This document shows, piece by piece, positions 4,258 to 20,000 of a stretch of DNA of 20,000 nucleotides (positions are counted from its first letter, which is position 1; each line of letters starts with the position of its first letter). Below the pieces are notes generated by a model. The model saw nothing but the letters and a program-made list of their open reading frames with translations, searched no databases and was not told the origin of the DNA. The stretch is taken from the NCBI GenBank assembly GCA_041494685.1, contig JBGQBE010000010.1:57701-77700 (forward strand). Reading direction: 5' to 3'. Position numbers and translations under genes: made by a program. Origin of the DNA: Dehalococcoidia bacterium. GTDB lineage: Bacteria; Chloroflexota; Dehalococcoidia; DSTF01; JACRBR01.

Positions 4258-4883
4258 GTCCGGGCCGCCGTCTGCGGCGCGGGCGAGTCCAGCGATAGCG
4301 TGGTCACGAACCGCGCACCGCCTGGCGGGTTCTCAACCCGCACCGTCCCGCCGCTCAAGCCAACGAACCCTTTGACGATAGCAAGACCCAGCCCGCCGCC
4401 CTTTGTCCGCCTGCCGATCCCGTTGCCACGATAGAAGCGCTCGAACAAGTGCGGGATGTCGTCCGGCGGAATGCCCGGCCCTTCGTCGGCGACGGTCAAT
4501 TCCGCCGACGCGCTTCTGCGGACAGCACTCAAGGTAATGCTGCCTCCAGGCGTCGAGTAGTTAGCAGCGTTCCCTGGTCGATCAGCGCGACGATCAGGAA
4601 CACGACGAGCACGAACGCGTTCTTCGGGTCTTCTGCCGTAAACGTGTACCGCGGCGGCACGAAGAAGAAGTCGAACGTCAGATTCAGCAGCGCCGCGAAC
4701 AGCCCGACCTGCCAACTCCAGGTCGCAGCAACCAGCAGCGACACGAGAAGGTAGACCAGGCCAGCGTTGAGGAGGCCGATCGGGCCATGCAAAGGCGCGA
4801 GCGCGGCCGTGAGTGCGGCGGGTTCCGACAACGGTCATCGCCACGCCGGCGCGGCGTTTCCGGAGCAGCGCACGAATCGTCAC
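4254..4883 (-). pseudogene. kdpD: KdpD-like sensor kinase pseudogene: DUF4118 membrane domain joined to a HATPase_c remnant, with the GAF/HisKA region deleted and frameshifts
   Basis: Frame A starts MTIRALLRKRRAGVAMTVVGT. One extra base in GGG 4820-4822 shifts to frame B, AALTAALAP...NAGLVYLLV...FDFFFVPPRYTFTAEDP..VFLIVALI (DUF4118). Near 4572-4580 homology returns to frame A, NAANYS...VADEGPGIP..IPHLFERFYR...GGGLGLAIVKG (N, G1, F and G2 boxes). No H-box is seen in any frame. Confidence 0.85.
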
Positions 4884-12986: not shown

Positions 12987-13304
12987 ATGTTCGCGCGCGT
13001 GACGATCGTCGAGGTCGACCCGGTGAGGATGAGTCCGGCTGCAGCCGTGGCGCGGTTCAAGGAACTGGTGCTGCCGGAGCTCCGCAGGCAGCAGGGGTAC
13101 GAAGGTGTGTACGTGTTGGACACGCCGGAGGGCAAAGGGCTGTTGATCAGCCTGTGGGCCACACAGGAGGCGGCGCAGTCGAATATTGCGAGCGGCTACT
13201 ACGAGGCGCAACTCGCGAAATTCGTCACAGTGTTCCGCTCTCCGCCCGGTCGCGAGCAATACGAGGTCGCACTCGCCGAATCACCGTCAGTGGCCAACTC
13301 TTAA
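12987..13304 (+). CDS. ABM-like (dimeric alpha+beta barrel) small protein
   Basis: AGGAGG 6 nt before ATG 12987. The 105-aa sequence MFARVT...VLPELRRQQGYEGVYVL....GKGLLISLWATQEAA...YEV fits the antibiotic-biosynthesis-monooxygenase-like pattern. Confidence 0.8.
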   Translation: MFARVTIVEVDPVRMSPAAAVARFKELVLPELRRQQGYEGVYVLDTPEGKGLLISLWATQEAAQSNIASGYYEAQLAKFVTVFRSPPGREQYEVALAESPSVANS

Positions 13305-13338
13305 GCTTCGATGTCGAAGTGGCACACCGGAGGCCGCG

Positions 13339-16323
13339 ATGCAGACGCTGTTCGGCATCCCCGCCAACACACTGGCAGCGGTGATGCTCGCCGCCTTCGC
13401 CGTTGCAGGCAGCATCGTGGCGATCGCCGCCGTCCGCAACCGCGTATTCCTCAGGCTCGGCGTCCGCAACGTTGGGCGCCGCCGCTCGAGAACGGTGCTG
13501 ATCCTCCTCGGCCTGATGCTCGGCACGGCGCTGATCTCTGCGGCTCTGAACACGGGCGACACGCTTGCCCATAGCGTCCGCACCGCCGCCATCCGATCGC
13601 TGGGCGATACCGATGAGTTGGTCGGCCTCAAGGGCGTCTCTGCCGGCCAGTTTGGGGTCTACGCGGTCGTCGACTACTTCGACCAGGGCACGCTGCCCGA
13701 CGTCAAGGCCGCTGCCGACGCCTCGGGCCGCGTCGATGGCGTCGCGCCCGCGGTCATCGAGACCATCGCGGTACAGGACGTCACCACCCGGCAGACCGAG
13801 TCACAGATCGGATTGTTCGCCACCGACCCCGCGCAGATGAGGGGGTTCGGCGCGATCTCGAAATCGGGTGGCGGCGACATCTCGCTCGCCGATCTTGGAG
13901 ACGGCGAGCTCTACCTCAACGCAACGGGCGCGGAGAAGCTCGATGCCCGTGCCGGCAACGAGATGACGGTCTTTGCTGGCGGCGCGCTCCAGACCATGCG
14001 CGTCAAGGACATCGTCAACTACGACGGCACCGGTACCGATGGCGCCGCCATTCTCATCCCGCTTGCCGCTGCCCAGAAGCTCGTCCACAAGGAAGGCCGG
14101 ATCAACTACGTCCTCATCTCCAACACCGGCGGAGTCGGCGACACCGACCGCGTCGTCAAGGCCATGGAGCCCGGTCTCACGGCCGCCGGCCTCGAGATCA
14201 AGCCCACCAAGCAGGACGCGCTCAACATCGCCGACCAGATCGGCAACAGCATGATGATCACCTTCACCACGTTCGGCACCTTCTCGGTCGTCGCCGGCGT
14301 CCTGCTGATCTTCCTCATTTTCGTCATGCTCGCCGCCGAGCGGAAGGCGGAGATGGGCGTCTCCCGCGCCGTCGGCACACAGCGCACCAACCTCGTCCAG
14401 ATGTTCCTCTTCGAGGGCGTCGCCTACGATCTTGCGGCCGCGACCATCGGTGCGCTGCTCGGCGTCGCCGTCGCCTACGTCATGGTGCTCGTCATGGCGG
14501 CTGCGCTCGCGAGCTTCGGCTTCCACCTCGAGCACGACCTGCGCGCCTCCAGCATGATCATCGCGTACACGCTCGGCGTGCTGATCACGCTCATCGTTGT
14601 CACGGTGTCCGCCTGGCAGGTCAGCGTTCTGAACATCGTCCGCGCCATCCGCAACCTGCCGGACCCCGCGCTGCGCGGCAGTGGTCGTGGCAGCCTGCTC
14701 ATCGGCGCCATCGCCTCGATCTTCGGCGCGCTCCTGATCTACTTGGGCATTGCGGCAACCCAGGCCGCCAGCTTCCACCTCGGCGTGTCGCTGATCATCA
14801 TCGGCGCCATCCCGGTGCTGCGCGCTCTCCGCGTGAACGAGCGTCTCGCCTGGTCCACGCCCGCCGCCGCGCTCACCGTGTGGTGGCTCATGCCCTTCTT
14901 CGTCACTGAATCCTTCCTCCCCGCGCTCTCGAAGGACTTCACGATCTTCGTTCTCAGCGGCCTCATGGTTGTCACGGGCGCCATCTGGGTGATCATGTAC
15001 AACTCCGACCTTATTCTCCACGGTGCCATGACCATCTTCGGTCGCATCAAGTGGCTCGCGCCGATGCTCAAGGCCGCCGTCGCCTATCCGCTCAGCAGCC
15101 GCTTCCGCACCGGCGCCGCACTCGCCATGTTCACGCTCGTTGTCTTCACCCTCGTCGTGATGGCCACGGTGATCACGTCCGTCAACGGCGTGCTCGATGA
15201 CAAGCAAACTTTCGGCGGCGGCTACGACATTCGCGCCACGACCGCTCCCATCAGCCCGATCACGAATCTCGAAGCCATGATCAGGCAGCAGCCCGATCTC
15301 AACGCAGCCGACTTCCAGAACACGGCCGCCGGCTCGACGCTCGCCCTCAAGGTCCGCCAGGTCGGCGTCAGCGATACCAAGTACCACGACTACCTCGCCC
15401 GCGGCTTCGACGACGCCTTCATGGCCAACAACCAGTTCGGCTTCTCGCTCATGGCCTCGGGCTACGACTCCCCCCGCCAGATCTGGCAGGCGCTCGCCGG
15501 CCACCCCGACCTTGCGGTCATCGACGCATACGCCGTCCCGCGACGCACCAATTACAGCGGCGGTCCTACCACCATCGAGTTCCACCTCAGCGGCTTCTAC
15601 CTTGAAGACAAGAAGCTCCCGCCGCTCCAGATCGAAGTCAACGACCCGCAGACCGGCGCCACGCGCACCCTCACCGTCATCGGCGTCCTCCGCGACACCG
15701 TGTCACAAGAGGCCATGCTGGGCGTCTCGACGTCCGAACGTTCAGTCCTCTCCGCCTACGGCGTCCGCGCCCAGCCGACGACGCATTTCGTGAAGCTCGC
15801 GCCCGGCGTCGACGCGAAGGGCGCCGCGAAGTCGCTTGAGTCCGCGTTCCTCGCAAACGGCATGCAGGCCACCCCGATCCAGTCCGAGCTCAACGACTTG
15901 ATGGCCACACAGCACGCATTCACCTACATCCTCGAAGGTTTCATGGGCCTCGGCCTCATCGTCGGCGTCTGCGCGCTCGGCGTCATCAGCGCCCGTTCAG
16001 TCGTCGAGCGCCGGCAGGAGATCGGCGTCCTTCGATCTCTGGGCTTCCAACAGGGCATGGTGCAGATCGCTTTCCTGCTTGAGTCCTCGTTTATCTCGCT
16101 GCTGGGCATCTTCCTCGGGATTGCCCTCGGGCTTGTCGTCTCCTTCAACGTCGTCCTCGACTATCGCAACACCCCTGGCTGGGAGACGATGACGTTCACA
16201 GTCCCCTGGCTCACGCTCGGCATCGTCTTCGCCGTGGTGTACGCGGGGTCCTTGCTGGCGACTCTCCTGCCGGCGCGGCAAGCGTCGCGCGTGTACCCCG
16301 CTCAGGCACTTCGCTACGAGTAG
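13339..16323 (+). CDS. FtsX/MacB-type (type VII) ABC permease with duplicated extracellular and FtsX domains
   Basis: GGAGG before ATG 13339. Two repeats, each with an FtsX motif (AAERKAEMGVSRAVG; VVERRQEIGVLRSLG), two large extracytoplasmic domains, and the terminal LPARQASRVYPAQALRYE. Confidence 0.93.
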   Translation: MQTLFGIPANTLAAVMLAAFAVAGSIVAIAAVRNRVFLRLGVRNVGRRRSRTVLILLGLMLGTALISAALNTGDTLAHSVRTAAIRSLGDTDELVGLKGVSAGQFGVYAVVDYFDQGTLPDVKAAADASGRVDGVAPAVIETIAVQDVTTRQTESQIGLFATDPAQMRGFGAISKSGGGDISLADLGDGELYLNATGAEKLDARAGNEMTVFAGGALQTMRVKDIVNYDGTGTDGAAILIPLAAAQKLVHKEGRINYVLISNTGGVGDTDRVVKAMEPGLTAAGLEIKPTKQDALNIADQIGNSMMITFTTFGTFSVVAGVLLIFLIFVMLAAERKAEMGVSRAVGTQRTNLVQMFLFEGVAYDLAAATIGALLGVAVAYVMVLVMAAALASFGFHLEHDLRASSMIIAYTLGVLITLIVVTVSAWQVSVLNIVRAIRNLPDPALRGSGRGSLLIGAIASIFGALLIYLGIAATQAASFHLGVSLIIIGAIPVLRALRVNERLAWSTPAAALTVWWLMPFFVTESFLPALSKDFTIFVLSGLMVVTGAIWVIMYNSDLILHGAMTIFGRIKWLAPMLKAAVAYPLSSRFRTGAALAMFTLVVFTLVVMATVITSVNGVLDDKQTFGGGYDIRATTAPISPITNLEAMIRQQPDLNAADFQNTAAGSTLALKVRQVGVSDTKYHDYLARGFDDAFMANNQFGFSLMASGYDSPRQIWQALAGHPDLAVIDAYAVPRRTNYSGGPTTIEFHLSGFYLEDKKLPPLQIEVNDPQTGATRTLTVIGVLRDTVSQEAMLGVSTSERSVLSAYGVRAQPTTHFVKLAPGVDAKGAAKSLESAFLANGMQATPIQSELNDLMATQHAFTYILEGFMGLGLIVGVCALGVISARSVVERRQEIGVLRSLGFQQGMVQIAFLLESSFISLLGIFLGIALGLVVSFNVVLDYRNTPGWETMTFTVPWLTLGIVFAVVYAGSLLATLLPARQASRVYPAQALRYE

Positions 16324-16420: not shown

Positions 16421-16867
16421 ATGTCGATCGAAGGAGACTACGAACCGAGCCCGTGGAAGTTCGCTGCCGATCAAGTTGCGCTGTACGAGGCCACAGGCGG
16501 CGCTGAGGGCGCGACGCTCCAGGACAAGCCTGTCATCATCTTGACGACGCGCGGCCGCCGCAGCGGCAAGGTCCGAAAGACACCGCTGATGCGTGTCGAG
16601 CACGATGGTACCTATGCCGTCGTAGCGTCGATGGGTGGCGCGCCGAAGCACCCGGTCTGGTACTTGAACCTCACCGCCTGGCCGTCCGTCACCCTGCAGG
16701 ACGGACCGAAGGTCTATGAGATGCGTGCTCGCGAAGTACATGGAGACGAGAAAGGGCGCTGGTGGGCGCGCGCGGTCACGGCTTGGCCACCCTATGCGGA
16801 GTACCAGACCAAGACCGATCGGCAAATCCCCGTCGTGGTGCTCGAGCTCGCCGATCGCCCATCGTAG
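16421..16867 (+). CDS. Deazaflavin (F420H2)-dependent oxidoreductase, Ddn / FDOR-A family
   Basis: [34 protein letters not shown] and [17 protein letters not shown] are hallmark Ddn-family motifs. Confidence 0.93.
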
Positions 16868-17678: not shown

Positions 17679-17711
17679 GAGGCGAGGCCCCGGGTCTTTG
17701 GGCCTCGCCTC
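17679..17711 (-). terminator. Perfect 12-bp hairpin just downstream of the tRNA 3' end
   Basis: GAGGCGAGGCCC (17679-17690) pairs with GGGCCTCGCCTC (17700-17711) around a 9-nt loop, 8 nt past the CCA. There is no U-tract. Confidence 0.6.
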
Positions 17712-17719
17712 TGCGAGTG

Positions 17720-17768
17720 TGGTCCCAGGGGGTGGATTCGAACCACCGATACACGGTTTTACAGACCG
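17720..17768 (-). tRNA. 3' half of a tRNA-Tyr(GUA) gene (att-site remnant; 5' half absent)
   Basis: Minus strand reads CGGT CTGTAAA ACCGT GTATC GGTGG TTCGAAT CCACC CCCTGGG A CCA: anticodon arm, 5-nt variable loop, perfect T arm, acceptor 3' strand, discriminator and CCA. No D arm or acceptor 5' strand is found upstream. Confidence 0.85.
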
Positions 17769-17868
17769 GACCGTTTCGTACATCGCCGTCCGTAGGCGGT
17801 CGCACACGATCGGAAATCGGAGTGTGTTTTCCGTATCGATGCGAGGTCGTCCGCACTCGTCCGTGCGG

Positions 17869-17890
17869 GTTGCTGTCAGCGTTGCTGTCA
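17869..17890. repeat. Tandem 10-bp direct repeat GTTGCTGTCA, probable integrase arm-type binding sites
   Basis: Exact copies at 17869-17878 and 17881-17890 (12-bp period), about 100 bp from the att core, as expected for tyrosine integrase arm sites. Confidence 0.7.
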
Positions 17891-17935
17891 CGAGGAGTTC
17901 TGCGAAGTACGACGTTTTCATCTCGGCACCGAAGG

Positions 17936-19426
17936 TTACGCGCCGGGCGAACCGGCATCACCTTGTTCCTCGTGCGACTGCTTGAGCCAAAAGTAGTGCC
18001 TGTAAAGATAACGCCATGCAGTTGTTACGAGTAGATGGAGCGCTCGGTCCTCGTCGCTGTCCGGGGGAGGGGTCGTCGGAAGGGCGTCCTCCAAATCACG
18101 TAAGGCCTCCAATTCTTGAAAGTGATCCGAGCTGCGTATCGCAGCCGCCGCAGCTTCTAAGCGCCCCCTGTAGCGTTCATCGGGCACATCTTCCCACGCT
18201 AGGCGCGTCCTTGACAACGCCTTGACTGCGCCGAGGATGGTGGCCAGTCTCAGCCCGCTCTCCGCCAGGAATTGGTACTTCTCGATCTCGACGATCAGAG
18301 GCAGTGCGGAACTCAGGCGGACCCGGGGATCGATGGATTCATCGCCTAGGACTTCGCAGACGTGTTCAAATCGCTCTTGGTTCGTGACGAGTTTGGCCTC
18401 GAGTCCAATTTCTTCGGCGAGTTCCATGCCAAGCAGTAGAGTGCTTAGGCAGAGGCGGAAGACCTGCCGCCCGTAGGACGAGAGTGACTGATACAGATGG
18501 GCTTCGTCCGGCTTTGACGTCGCGACAGAGAAGCGACGCAACGTTGTGCCGCCCTCATGCGCAATCTGCGATCTCGCGGCGTAGAACTGTTGCGCCCATC
18601 GGTCTAGCCGTGGAGTTCGGCCCAGAATCAAGGAGATCGCATCGACGAATCGATCGCTCTTTTCGCTTGCCGGTAGACCTAGGACCGCTTCAAAGGCGAT
18701 GGCGAGATTCACAAGGGCCGAGTCGTCGTTCAGGTTGTCTTCGTTTGCCGCGTTATACCAGCGCAGAGCCGTAAACAGCCTTGTCGCGTTGGGCTTCAGA
18801 GGCCTCAGCAGGAGACCGCCGAGGCGCTGGTATGGCGCATCACTGCGTCCACGTGTGCCTAGGTCGGTACTGAGATCTTGGGAGATGTTCAGGCCCGGAT
18901 CCGGGCTGGGGCCATAGAGGCGCGAGCCCTTTGCAATCCAGAAGTAGTGCCTGAAGTTGTAAAGGCCCGCATATCCATCCACTTCCCCTCTTTCGTCCGG
19001 GATAAGAGTTCGTGGACTAAGCGGCACGACATTGTAATCCGGTTGAAGCAGATGAATTGACACGGCCTGTGGGGAGAAGACGACCATGCTAGCGTTCTCG
19101 TAAGGCAGGAAGGGGTCGCCAAAGATCGCGTGGGGTGATGCGTAAGCGTAGGCCACGATCGCCTGAACATTCTGGAGCACGTCCAACTCCGCTGAGCCGC
19201 GATCAATCTTGATATGGCGCATCGCTGTGAATGACGCGGAACGGATTCTGAAGTCGTCCTTCAGGAAGAGCATGTCTGCGATTTCGCTCAGTCTCTCCGC
19301 GTCCGACGCAGAGAGCCCGGTCAAGTCGTTGGTGGACTGAAAGGTATGAGGGCCGATCGTCACGGGGTGCGTCGTCTTGAGGAAGGGGAATACGGCGAAG
19401 GTGGAGGTGTCTTCCAGGTTGCGCAT
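17936..19426 (-). CDS. ApeA-like HEPN domain protein (putative RNase / anti-phage effector)
   Basis: LFTALRWYN...ALVNLAIAFEAVLG followed by FYAARSQIAHEG (R-x4-H at 18557-18574). 496 aa from ATG 19426, with atypical codon usage. Confidence 0.75.
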   Translation of the reverse strand: MRNLEDTSTFAVFPFLKTTHPVTIGPHTFQSTNDLTGLSASDAERLSEIADMLFLKDDFRIRSASFTAMRHIKIDRGSAELDVLQNVQAIVAYAYASPHAIFGDPFLPYENASMVVFSPQAVSIHLLQPDYNVVPLSPRTLIPDERGEVDGYAGLYNFRHYFWIAKGSRLYGPSPDPGLNISQDLSTDLGTRGRSDAPYQRLGGLLLRPLKPNATRLFTALRWYNAANEDNLNDDSALVNLAIAFEAVLGLPASEKSDRFVDAISLILGRTPRLDRWAQQFYAARSQIAHEGGTTLRRFSVATSKPDEAHLYQSLSSYGRQVFRLCLSTLLLGMELAEEIGLEAKLVTNQERFEHVCEVLGDESIDPRVRLSSALPLIVEIEKYQFLAESGLRLATILGAVKALSRTRLAWEDVPDERYRGRLEAAAAAIRSSDHFQELEALRDLEDALPTTPPPDSDEDRALHLLVTTAWRYLYRHYFWLKQSHEEQGDAGSPGA

Positions 19427-19567
19427 CGTAGTAATGTGGCGTCCGTGCAATATTCTCGACGCCCGTTGACACGAGGAGGCCGCTTGGCTGTGTTTCGCCG
19501 ACTCACGGCGGCGTCTCTGCGCGCCGTACACGCGGGATCGTCAGTGTCCAATGCTGCCGGCTGTGCG

Positions 19568-19722
19568 TCAAGCGACCCCAATCGCCTCCGCCACCGCGCC
19601 CCAGCCCGTGTCCTCCTGCCCCTCCAGCCGGCGCAGGTACACCGTCGCCACCGCCCGCGAGGAGTGGTCGAGGAACCGGCTCACGTCCTCGACGCTCTCC
19701 CCGACGTCGCGCCGGAGCTTGG
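19568..19722 (-). pseudogene. C-terminal remnant of a tyrosine recombinase
   Basis: A frame absent from the ORF track reads KLRRDVGESVEDVSRFLDHSSRAVATVYLRRLEGQEDTGWGAVAEAIGVA*, matching box II (L-D/G-H-S-x4-T-x-Y). There is an in-frame stop at 19739-19741 and no HxxR motif upstream. Confidence 0.85.
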
Positions 19723-19853
19723 TCGAAGTCGGATTGTCTCAGTGAGAGTCTGCGGAATGTGTGGCGAGCACGATCGGGAATCGGTGCAGTTGCGTGCCGA
19801 GTCTGATTGCAAGAGCCACCCGATCTGCAGACGCCCCTACTGACAACCCGCGG

Positions 19854-19859
19854 TCTAGA
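19854..19859. repeat. Probable IS target-site duplication copy TCTAGA
   Basis: Palindromic hexamer abutting the terminal TGT. It fits the NCTAGN target known for IS481. The second copy would lie outside the window. Confidence 0.65.
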
Positions 19860-19887
19860 TGTAGTTCCCACCAAGGTTATTGACACA

Positions 19888-19948
19888 AAGAGAGTGCTCG
19901 AGTCGGCTGTGGGTGTTGAAAGCCTGCAGTCGAAAGGAGCACTCTCTT
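19888..19948 (+). promoter_or_regulatory. Stem-loop sequestering the transposase SD and start codon
   Basis: AAGAGAGTGCTC (19888-19899) is the exact reverse complement of GAGCACTCTCTT (19937-19948). An inner imperfect stem with G-U pairs is also possible. Confidence 0.7.
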
Positions 19949-20000
19949 GGCACATGGTAACGCGCGGCTGACCACCTACGGCAGACTCCAGATCGTCCGC
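19947..20000 (+). CDS. IS481-family transposase, N-terminal 18 codons (partial)
   Basis: AAAGGAG (19933-19939), then a TTG start: MAHGNARLTTYGRLQIVR, matching the H-x-N-A-R-L-T-x-x-G-R N-terminus of IS481 transposases. Confidence 0.85.
   Translation, partial: MAHGNARLTTYGRLQIVR

Follow-up and report, generated by a model that had tools for sequence, protein, structure and literature searches.

A tRNA-Tyr fragment at a probable integrase island junction points to an archaeal-rule tyrosine pair in soil Chloroflexota

The tRNA for tyrosine marks a textbook boundary between the domains of life: bacterial tRNA-Tyr has a G1-C72 pair and a long variable arm, while in archaea and eukaryotes the tRNA-Tyr has a C1-G72 pair and a short variable loop. 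In bacterial TyrRS, an S4-like domain holds the long variable arm. The orthogonal pair most widely used for expanding the genetic code rests on the same domain split. A 2023 identity review and a 2026 paper still give the domain rule for tRNA-Tyr.

The closest described systems are those of CPR bacteria. Mukai, Reynolds, Crnkovic and Soll (2017, Life 7:8; PMC5370408) reported an archaeal-type TyrRS together with a C1-G72 tRNA-Tyr in CPR only (OD1, OP11, WS6, and WWE3), termed this the first evidence in bacteria, and noted that many of the CPR tRNAs keep the long arm; the word "Chloroflexi" is absent from their text. A first-pass annotation of the DNA analyzed here, which described this identity set as reported in bacteria mainly from CPR lineages, agrees with that account. 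In full-text literature, including papers that cite Mukai et al., we found no published report for Chloroflexota, Dormibacteria, Anaerolineae, or otherwise outside the CPR, most subscription journals and supplements being outside the scope of the search. In the laboratory, the TyrRS/tRNA-Tyr pair of Escherichia coli has been replaced by an archaeal pair (Iraha et al., 2010, as described by Mukai et al.).

The system described here resembles those of the CPR in combining, within a bacterium, an archaea/eukarya-type TyrRS without the S4-like domain and a C1-G72 tRNA-Tyr, and again the nearest archaeal TyrRS relatives are DPANN. Unlike the CPR systems, it is found in Chloroflexota, including Dormibacteria, with genomes of free-living size (2.4 to 4.4 Mb; 3.29 Mb for the genome in hand), the relatives being GTDB-type families of one order; the arm has been lost in the Chloroflexota class-I tRNA-Tyr genes examined; and the change can be located within a single order, where a sister genus has not switched and one genome carries both pairs. 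The exception as such is known from the CPR, and what is new is its non-CPR members, the Chloroflexota. Archaeal pairs (2cyc and 1j1u) share with it a near-full-length TyrRS match, the KMSKS and HLGQ motifs, and a tRNA with C1-G72, A73, and a short variable loop. It differs from them in its bacterial host and in a tRNA D arm of bacterial class-II build, the TyrRS likeness being that of the overall alignment. Like the E. coli strain of Iraha et al., as that work is described by Mukai et al., the host appears to be a bacterium living on an archaeal-rule Tyr pair alone, but that strain was engineered, whereas here the replacement is natural and has been kept across a family.

We consider it very probable that the fragment is the attR scar of an integrase island, and that the host and most of its family decode tyrosine by an archaeal-rule pair that replaced the bacterial one. 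An island with a tyrosine integrase would have inserted into the single tRNA-Tyr gene of the genome, leaving a copy of the 3' part at attR, and the intact gene with its neighboring integrase would be the other side of the island. The class-I C1-G72/A73 tRNA-Tyr would be matched by an archaeal-type TyrRS lacking the S4-like domain, this pair having displaced the bacterial pair in most of the family while sister families kept theirs.

The remnant and the intact tRNA-Tyr gene

The window, that is, the whole 20,000-nucleotide stretch analyzed, comes from a MAG of an uncultured soil Chloroflexota bacterium (Dehalococcoidia). The MAG is 97.6% complete and comprises 3.29 Mb in 87 contigs, of which the window lies on contig C10. 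The features at the remnant are as follows.

17720..17768 (-): the 3' 49 nt of tRNA-Tyr(GUA), standard positions 28 to 76; remnant copy, attR side, the same as C40:4492-4540
17714..17768 (-): 55-nt direct repeat common to the intact tRNA-Tyr locus, an unbroken identical alignment block; likely the integrase core/crossover region
17679..17711 (-): G+C-rich hairpin just downstream of the remnant, with a 12-bp stem, a 9-nt loop, and no U tract

Read 5' to 3' as the reverse complement of 17720-17768, the remnant begins with the CGGU strand of the anticodon stem, followed by the loop CUGUAAA and ACCGU. It continues with a 5-nt variable loop (GUAUC) and the T arm GGUGG-UUCGAAU-CCACC and ends in the acceptor strand CCCUGGG with G72, then A73 and an encoded CCA. 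The GUA anticodon, 5-nt variable loop, G72, and A73 described in the first-pass annotation are all borne out by this reading. The 5' half of the tRNA is absent upstream, and neither ARAGORN nor Rfam (E<=0.01; also at the gathering score over the whole window) calls a tRNA here, so that 17720-17768 is a fragment. No second copy of the 49-mer was found within the window. The hairpin that follows had been called terminator-like: it is indeed stable (-29.2 kcal/mol, z of -4.08, with 0 of 200 shuffles equally stable), but it lacks a T run, and a consensus terminator scan returned nothing at 17679-17711. The only ARAGORN call in the window, a "tRNA-Leu(gag)" at 4292-4365 (-), was read as a false positive; it is 74 nt long, has no long arm, and lies within an apparently ordinary coding sequence.

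The 28-nt T-arm/acceptor string recurs once in the genome, on contig C40, where ARAGORN calls an intact 77-nt tRNA-Tyr(GUA) at C40:4464-4540 that scores 64.2 bits against Rfam RF00005 (gathering score 29). As had been predicted from the remnant, this second copy is a complete tRNA that starts with CCCAGGG and has a GUA anticodon. It ends in CCCTGGG-A-CCA, giving a C1-G72 pair and an A73 discriminator, and it is of class I, with the 5-nt variable loop GUAUC, no long arm, and GUA in the 7-nt loop CUGUAAA. Across the whole genome, ARAGORN lists 49 tRNAs, a number that includes some false calls such as the window "tRNA-Leu" at 4292-4365, and the C40 gene is the single tRNA-Tyr among them. The long-arm tRNA-Tyr that a canonical bacterium would carry was sought in the same scan and is missing: neither a G1-C72 pair nor a long variable arm occurs in a tRNA-Tyr of this genome. 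The tRNA-Leu and tRNA-Ser genes of the same genome retain their long arms (84 to 92 nt). Since the MAG is incomplete, a second tRNA-Tyr or tyrS could still lie unassembled.

A cloverleaf fold suits the eighteen class-I tRNA-Tyr genes aligned from four clades, and C1-G72 and C2-G71 are kept in all 18. In their alignment, 94.7% of cells are paired versus 82.7% after shuffling (none of 500 shuffles reached the observed value), and compensatory changes were seen in 13 of 21 pairs.

Two further features of these tRNA sets may be recorded. Several genera of the host family (f1) have an A51-C63 mismatch in the T stem (GCAGG/CCCGC) of their class-I tRNA-Tyr (loci L022, L026, L027, L028, and L031), and this stem is one substitution from the GCAGG/CCUGC stem of the long-arm tRNA-Tyr of sister families. 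Outside the window, at C11:35092-35168 (-) of the window's genome, lies a 77-nt gene that ARAGORN labels "tRNA-Ala(tgc)" and that is without G3:U70 and has U73. SepRS, a possible explanation of this odd tRNA, was not found in the genome, and a normal tRNA-Cys is also present. With its anticodon loop CCUGCAA, the C11 gene seems closer to a Cys than to an Ala tRNA, and the D arm nearly matches that of the class-I tRNA-Tyr.

The TyrRS and its distribution in the order

Only two class-Ic synthetase genes are present in the genome, one for TrpRS and one for TyrRS.

C77:2059-3312: TyrRS gene, 417 aa, on the 3.6-kb contig C77

The TyrRS scores 398.7 bits against the archaeal-type model NF006330 (PRK08560; cut-off 220) and 87 bits against bacterial TIGR00234, below the cut-off of 113.8. 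In control genomes, NF006330 at E<=1e-60 had matches only in the four archaea. TIGR00234 passed its cut-off in archaeal controls too and so is not a strictly bacterial model, yet here it gave a clean separation of the two types. Among solved structures, the best match is the TyrRS of Pyrococcus horikoshii (2cyc_A; E of 4e-118, over residues 5-368 of 375), the Methanocaldococcus jannaschii enzyme (1j1u_A) gives an E of 3e-41, and the first bacterial structure among the TyrRS matches (1h3e) gives 7e-4. The sole Pfam domain is the catalytic PF00579, covering residues 73-392 of 417; the 2cyc_A alignment ends at residue 408, and no S4-like C-terminal domain was found with Pfam. The translation contains the class I motifs GKVHLGQG (the HLGQ form of HIGH) and MKMSKS. 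Judged by sequence, the genome's only TyrRS is of archaeal type, in line with the check that had been proposed for an enzyme lacking the S4-like C-terminal domain. Its family membership suggests that it reads C1-G72/A73 and would charge the class-I tRNA-Tyr. A short-arm C1-G72 tRNA and an archaeal-type enzyme in the same genome match each other by the archaeal rule, and the suggestion made from the remnant that this host uses a noncanonical tRNA-Tyr/TyrRS pair is thus supported, the sole tRNA-Tyr being of class I and the sole TyrRS archaeal-type. The archaeal rule would then be the sole Tyr system of ordinary-sized soil Chloroflexota.

We searched 41 genomes of the order: that of the window (G000), 24 others of f1, and 16 from families f2 to f5. 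An archaeal-type TyrRS over the cut-off is present in 22 of them, all in f1 (a tally that includes the unpublished genome G021), and another f1 genome, G007, has part of an archaeal-type gene, located at the end of a contig. Bacterial tyrS (E<=1e-30) occurs in 19 of the 41, namely in all 16 genomes of f2 to f5, in both genomes of genus g9, and in G001. The tRNA genes follow the enzymes closely. A short-arm tRNA-Tyr pattern matched 21 genomes (20 of the 22 with the archaeal-type enzyme, plus G007) and none of the 18 that have neither a full nor a partial archaeal-type gene; two f1 genomes with the archaeal-type enzyme, G012 and G017, gave no match. The long-arm pattern matched 18 of the 19 genomes with bacterial tyrS, G022 being the exception, and none of the other 22. 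Consistent with these patterns, ARAGORN run on fetched loci returned C1-G72 genes of 76 to 77 nt in f1 and G1-C72 genes of 86 to 88 nt in the other families and in G008.

One f1 genome, G001, has two complete Tyr systems, archaeal-type and bacterial. Its bacterial tyrS (L029:182-1572, -) scores 321 bits against TIGR00234 and is located directly downstream of a G1-C72 tRNA-Tyr with a long arm, in DNA with a GC content of 0.55 to 0.61; the genome also has the archaeal-type TyrRS of its family and a full class-I tRNA (L159:232-308, -). The two systems of G001 may be naturally orthogonal, or they may mark an intermediate step in the replacement. The switch is thereby bracketed within one order, in which sister families and one f1 genus are bacterial, most of f1 has switched, and one genome has both systems. 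Such genomes offer a natural series for studying how the identity of an essential tRNA can be replaced without breaking translation, and a source of archaeal-rule pairs adapted to bacterial hosts.

Wider occurrence and origin of the pair

Of 401 genomes sampled evenly across the phylum, 16 have archaeal-type TyrRS: the window's genome and 15 of the 17 genomes of family f29 (the 15 include two unpublished genomes, G312 and G213). Family f29 belongs to the Dormibacteria, its RpoB being 81 to 84% identical to that of a Dormibacteraeota record, and the archaeal-type pair occurs in Dormibacteria and Anaerolineae as well as in the window's order. A short-arm tRNA-Tyr was found in 4 of 5 f29 genomes. 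An apparent spread to Acidobacteriota through G442 (locus L083; "Ca. Angelobacter" in NCBI) was rejected. The RpoB of this genome is 94.7% identical to that of an f29 genome and 81.5% to that of a Dormibacterota genome, so the claim of spread beyond Chloroflexota/Dormibacteria was dropped. G442 also has the tyrS-to-rpoB spacing of f29 (about 28 kb), and its Acidobacteriota label is misleading for taxon counts. No rpoB match was found in a MAG labeled Actinomycetes that has an archaeal-type TyrRS locus.

The TyrRS phylogeny that had been proposed as a check was run as a quick maximum-likelihood tree of 85 TyrRS rows, with four rows of fewer than 300 residues left out and the root not known. All 65 Chloroflexota/Dormibacteria rows lie on one side of a branch with an unstarred SH-aLRT support of 84. 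They fall into four clades: Anaerolineae/Aggregatilineales (6 rows), Chloroflexota with genomes of about 4.3 Mb and their relatives (12 rows), the clade of the window (21 rows, support 100), and the Dormibacteria (26 rows, support 100). Opposite them stand the DPANN archaea together with two rows from CPR, one from WWE3, and a long one labeled Gammaproteobacteria. The window's family accordingly forms its own clade (SH-aLRT 100), apart from archaea and CPR. The first two of these clades had a short-arm tRNA-Tyr in 5 of 5 genomes, and further genomes of the Dormibacteria clade had one in 3 of 4. The archaeal-rule pair may have arrived by transfer within the Chloroflexota.

Many loci of Dormibacteria and Anaerolineae have the class-I tRNA some 60 to 350 nt upstream of tyrS, on the same strand.

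Loci with the tRNA upstream of tyrS: L080, L083, L085, L087, L095, L098, L102, L107, L117, L119, and L121

The window's genome has these genes on separate contigs, the tRNA on C40 and tyrS on C77. No T-box at gathering score was found in six tyrS loci.

The placement of the tRNA upstream of tyrS bears on where the class-I tRNA body came from. It would allow the two genes to travel as one piece, as expected if the class-I tRNA were an archaeal tRNA-Tyr gene that arrived with the archaeal enzyme and not a bacterial tRNA that lost its arm and had its first pairs flipped. The acceptor stem, which differs at pairs 1 to 4 from that of the long-arm tRNA of sister families, fits an archaeal origin too, as does the ordinary 4-bp D stem of the clade with genomes of about 4.3 Mb. 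We nevertheless regard an archaeal origin as unlikely. Among 16 archaeal TyrRS loci, none has a tRNA-Tyr within 1 kb of tyrS. In three of the four class-I clades, the D arm combines an 11-nt loop with a stem of 3 bp (GCC-AAGYGGYYUAA-GGC), a build shared with the long-arm tRNA-Tyr of sister families. This 3-bp/11-nt D arm is the build of bacterial class-II tRNAs generally. In five DPANN genomes, a strict tRNA-Tyr pattern had no match, and a loose one had 13, of which ARAGORN confirmed a single tRNA-Tyr, with a 4-bp D stem and a 7-nt loop; the archaeal side of this comparison thus rests on one example. The WWE3 genome has two long-arm tRNA-Tyr genes, one with C1-G72 beside its archaeal-type tyrS and one with G1-C72. 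The former, with D, anticodon, and T arms similar to those of the class-I genes, is still long-armed beside the archaeal-type enzyme, and the same intermediate appears in Mukai et al. (2017; PMC5370408). Because of the shared D-arm build and this C1-G72 long-arm tRNA, we lean, on thin evidence, toward the class-I tRNA being a remodeled bacterial tRNA in which the first pairs would have been flipped before the arm was lost.

The island at the tRNA-Tyr gene

Integrase islands insert in the 3' part of tRNA genes, and a direct repeat of that 3' part bounds the island. The features on either side of the remnant, and the integrase at the intact gene, are as follows.

13186..16323 (+): FtsX-type permease, 1045 aa; host flank, ordinary gene
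16421..16867 (+): F420H2-dependent quinone reductase gene; host flank (Pfam PF04075, E of 2e-50)
17769..20000 (no strand): island side of the junction, running to the end of contig C10, 2.2 kb past the remnant; GC content of 0.596 versus 0.683 for the genome
17845..17892 (-): 48-nt block; contains GACAGCAAC twice, at 17869-17877 and 17881-17889, with a spacing of 12 nt
17936..19531 (-): 531-aa ORF on the island side, function unassigned; codon-position GC fits a real gene, with a low GC3 of about 0.66
C40:4654-5838: tyrosine integrase, 394 aa, beside the intact tRNA-Tyr (PF00589, E of 2e-29; phrog_1, E of 1e-71)

The identity of 55 nt between the window and C40 spans C28 through CCA plus CACTCG and is far beyond chance. 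It ends with an A27/C difference on the 5' side and with a T/C difference 7 nt past CCA. That the two copies share 55 identical bases makes the window copy the probable far junction (attR) of an integrated island, and the integrase probably uses this repeat. A tyrosine integrase does adjoin the intact gene on C40, in agreement with the earlier proposal that an integrase targets this tRNA. Beyond it on C40 come ORFs without known function, methyltransferases, and a ParB-N/DNA methylase, and past about 7 kb the genes are mostly chromosomal-looking, with an integrase fragment among them. The two island ends are on different contigs, the intact side on C40 and the remnant side on C10. The 531-aa ORF on the remnant side has no match in Pfam, NCBIfam, or PHROG. 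A near-copy of the 48-nt block lies about 60 nt downstream of the intact tRNA and its repeat on C40, the window block lying about 100 nt before the repeat. The GACAGCAAC doublet is also found beside an integrase fragment of 57% identity on C8, and in a relative (G003, locus L015) it flanks a tRNA-Tyr fragment on both sides. The GACAGCAAC blocks are probably arm-type integrase sites. With its tRNA 3' direct repeat, a tyrosine integrase beside the intact tRNA, and repeated arm motifs, the element resembles other tRNA-targeting integrase islands; unlike them, it has as its target an archaeal-rule tRNA-Tyr, its cargo is largely unannotated, and its ends are known from two contigs. The remnant itself is an ordinary attR scar, and its interest lies in what it reveals about the Tyr system.

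The proposal that the remnant is the displaced native 3' end of the tRNA gene is reasonable, as the hairpin side has a host-like GC content of 0.684 versus 0.596 on the other side, but the repeat itself is silent on which copy is native, because both copies are identical. Gene order lends weak support to the flank of the remnant being native. In an empty-site comparison with the loci of 30 relatives, the luciferase-like gene upstream had no match, and the F420 reductase had one, in the other orientation: G009 has a 76%-identical homologue no more than about 150 nt from the 3' end of its tRNA-Tyr.

The 3' part of the tRNA is present in two or three copies in seven relatives, in two cases 18 to 20 kb apart on one contig. 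Related integrases, 51 to 74% identical, are found at tRNA-Tyr in G003, G010, G014, and G020, four of the relatives with extra copies. In a Dormibacteria genome (G204), an integrase of 37% identity sits beside a remnant located immediately upstream of tyrS and 36 kb away from the intact gene. The occurrence of related integrases at tRNA-Tyr in several genomes makes the class-I tRNA-Tyr a recurrent landing site. The two ends of the window's island are not on one contig, which would be compatible with the remnant being a pseudogene or decayed tRNA-Tyr duplicate that owes nothing to site-specific integration. That reading is very unlikely in view of these relatives, with their two or three such copies and the two cases of 18- to 20-kb spacing on one contig. 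The window copy, moreover, starts inside the anticodon stem and runs without mismatch through CCA and 6 nt more, the usual footprint of integration into a tRNA 3' end; an integrase flanks the intact copy, the 48-nt block occurs in both arms, and the island side has the lower GC content.

The genome is a MAG, and its TyrRS lies on the short 3.6-kb contig C77, as might be seen if binning or assembly had brought in tRNA-Tyr and TyrRS contigs from an archaeon or CPR bacterium while the real host had a bacterial pair. Several observations make such an artifact highly improbable. The GC contents of C77 (0.682) and of C40 upstream of the tRNA (0.693) are close to that of the genome (0.683), and the contig around the remnant is 77.7 kb long and carries ordinary genes. 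Among the 25 family genomes, the enzyme is present in 22 and the tRNA pattern in 21, and bacterial tyrS is absent from 22, including that of the window. The TyrRS of the family also forms its own clade (SH-aLRT 100), separate from archaea and CPR. A tRNA-Phe-like or other class-I body recruited to Tyr and charged by a bacterial-type enzyme, a reading that has the short variable loop as its one point in favor, is scarcely credible, in that the tRNA-Phe of the genome is 70% identical to the tRNA-Tyr, no nearer than tRNA-Met (73%), tRNA-Thr, or tRNA-Ala (71%), and no bacterial tyrS was found in the genome.

To return to the replacement of a bacterial by an archaeal-rule pair and its association with integrative elements, positions 28 to 76 of tRNA-Tyr match letter for letter in the window's family and in distant Dormibacteria, with a TyrRS protein identity of only about 54 to 60%. 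It is possible, and on balance doubtful, that tRNA-Tyr and archaeal-type tyrS form a transferable, self-sufficient "orthogonal pair" within the Chloroflexota, one that would have entered f1, coexisted with the bacterial pair as in G001, and then displaced it, with integrative elements carrying the 3' 49 nt of the tRNA as attachment site and overwriting that part of the host gene at each insertion. Repeated overwriting of this kind would help to explain the identity of positions 28 to 76 despite the low TyrRS identity. The switch of Tyr system would also redefine which mobile elements can land at tRNA-Tyr.

Doublets of GACAGCAAC with the 12-nt spacing occur at five sites in the genome, namely at 17869-17889 in the window and at C40:4601-4621, C8:43232-43252, C24:20218-20238, and C25:399-419, two of them beside related integrase genes.
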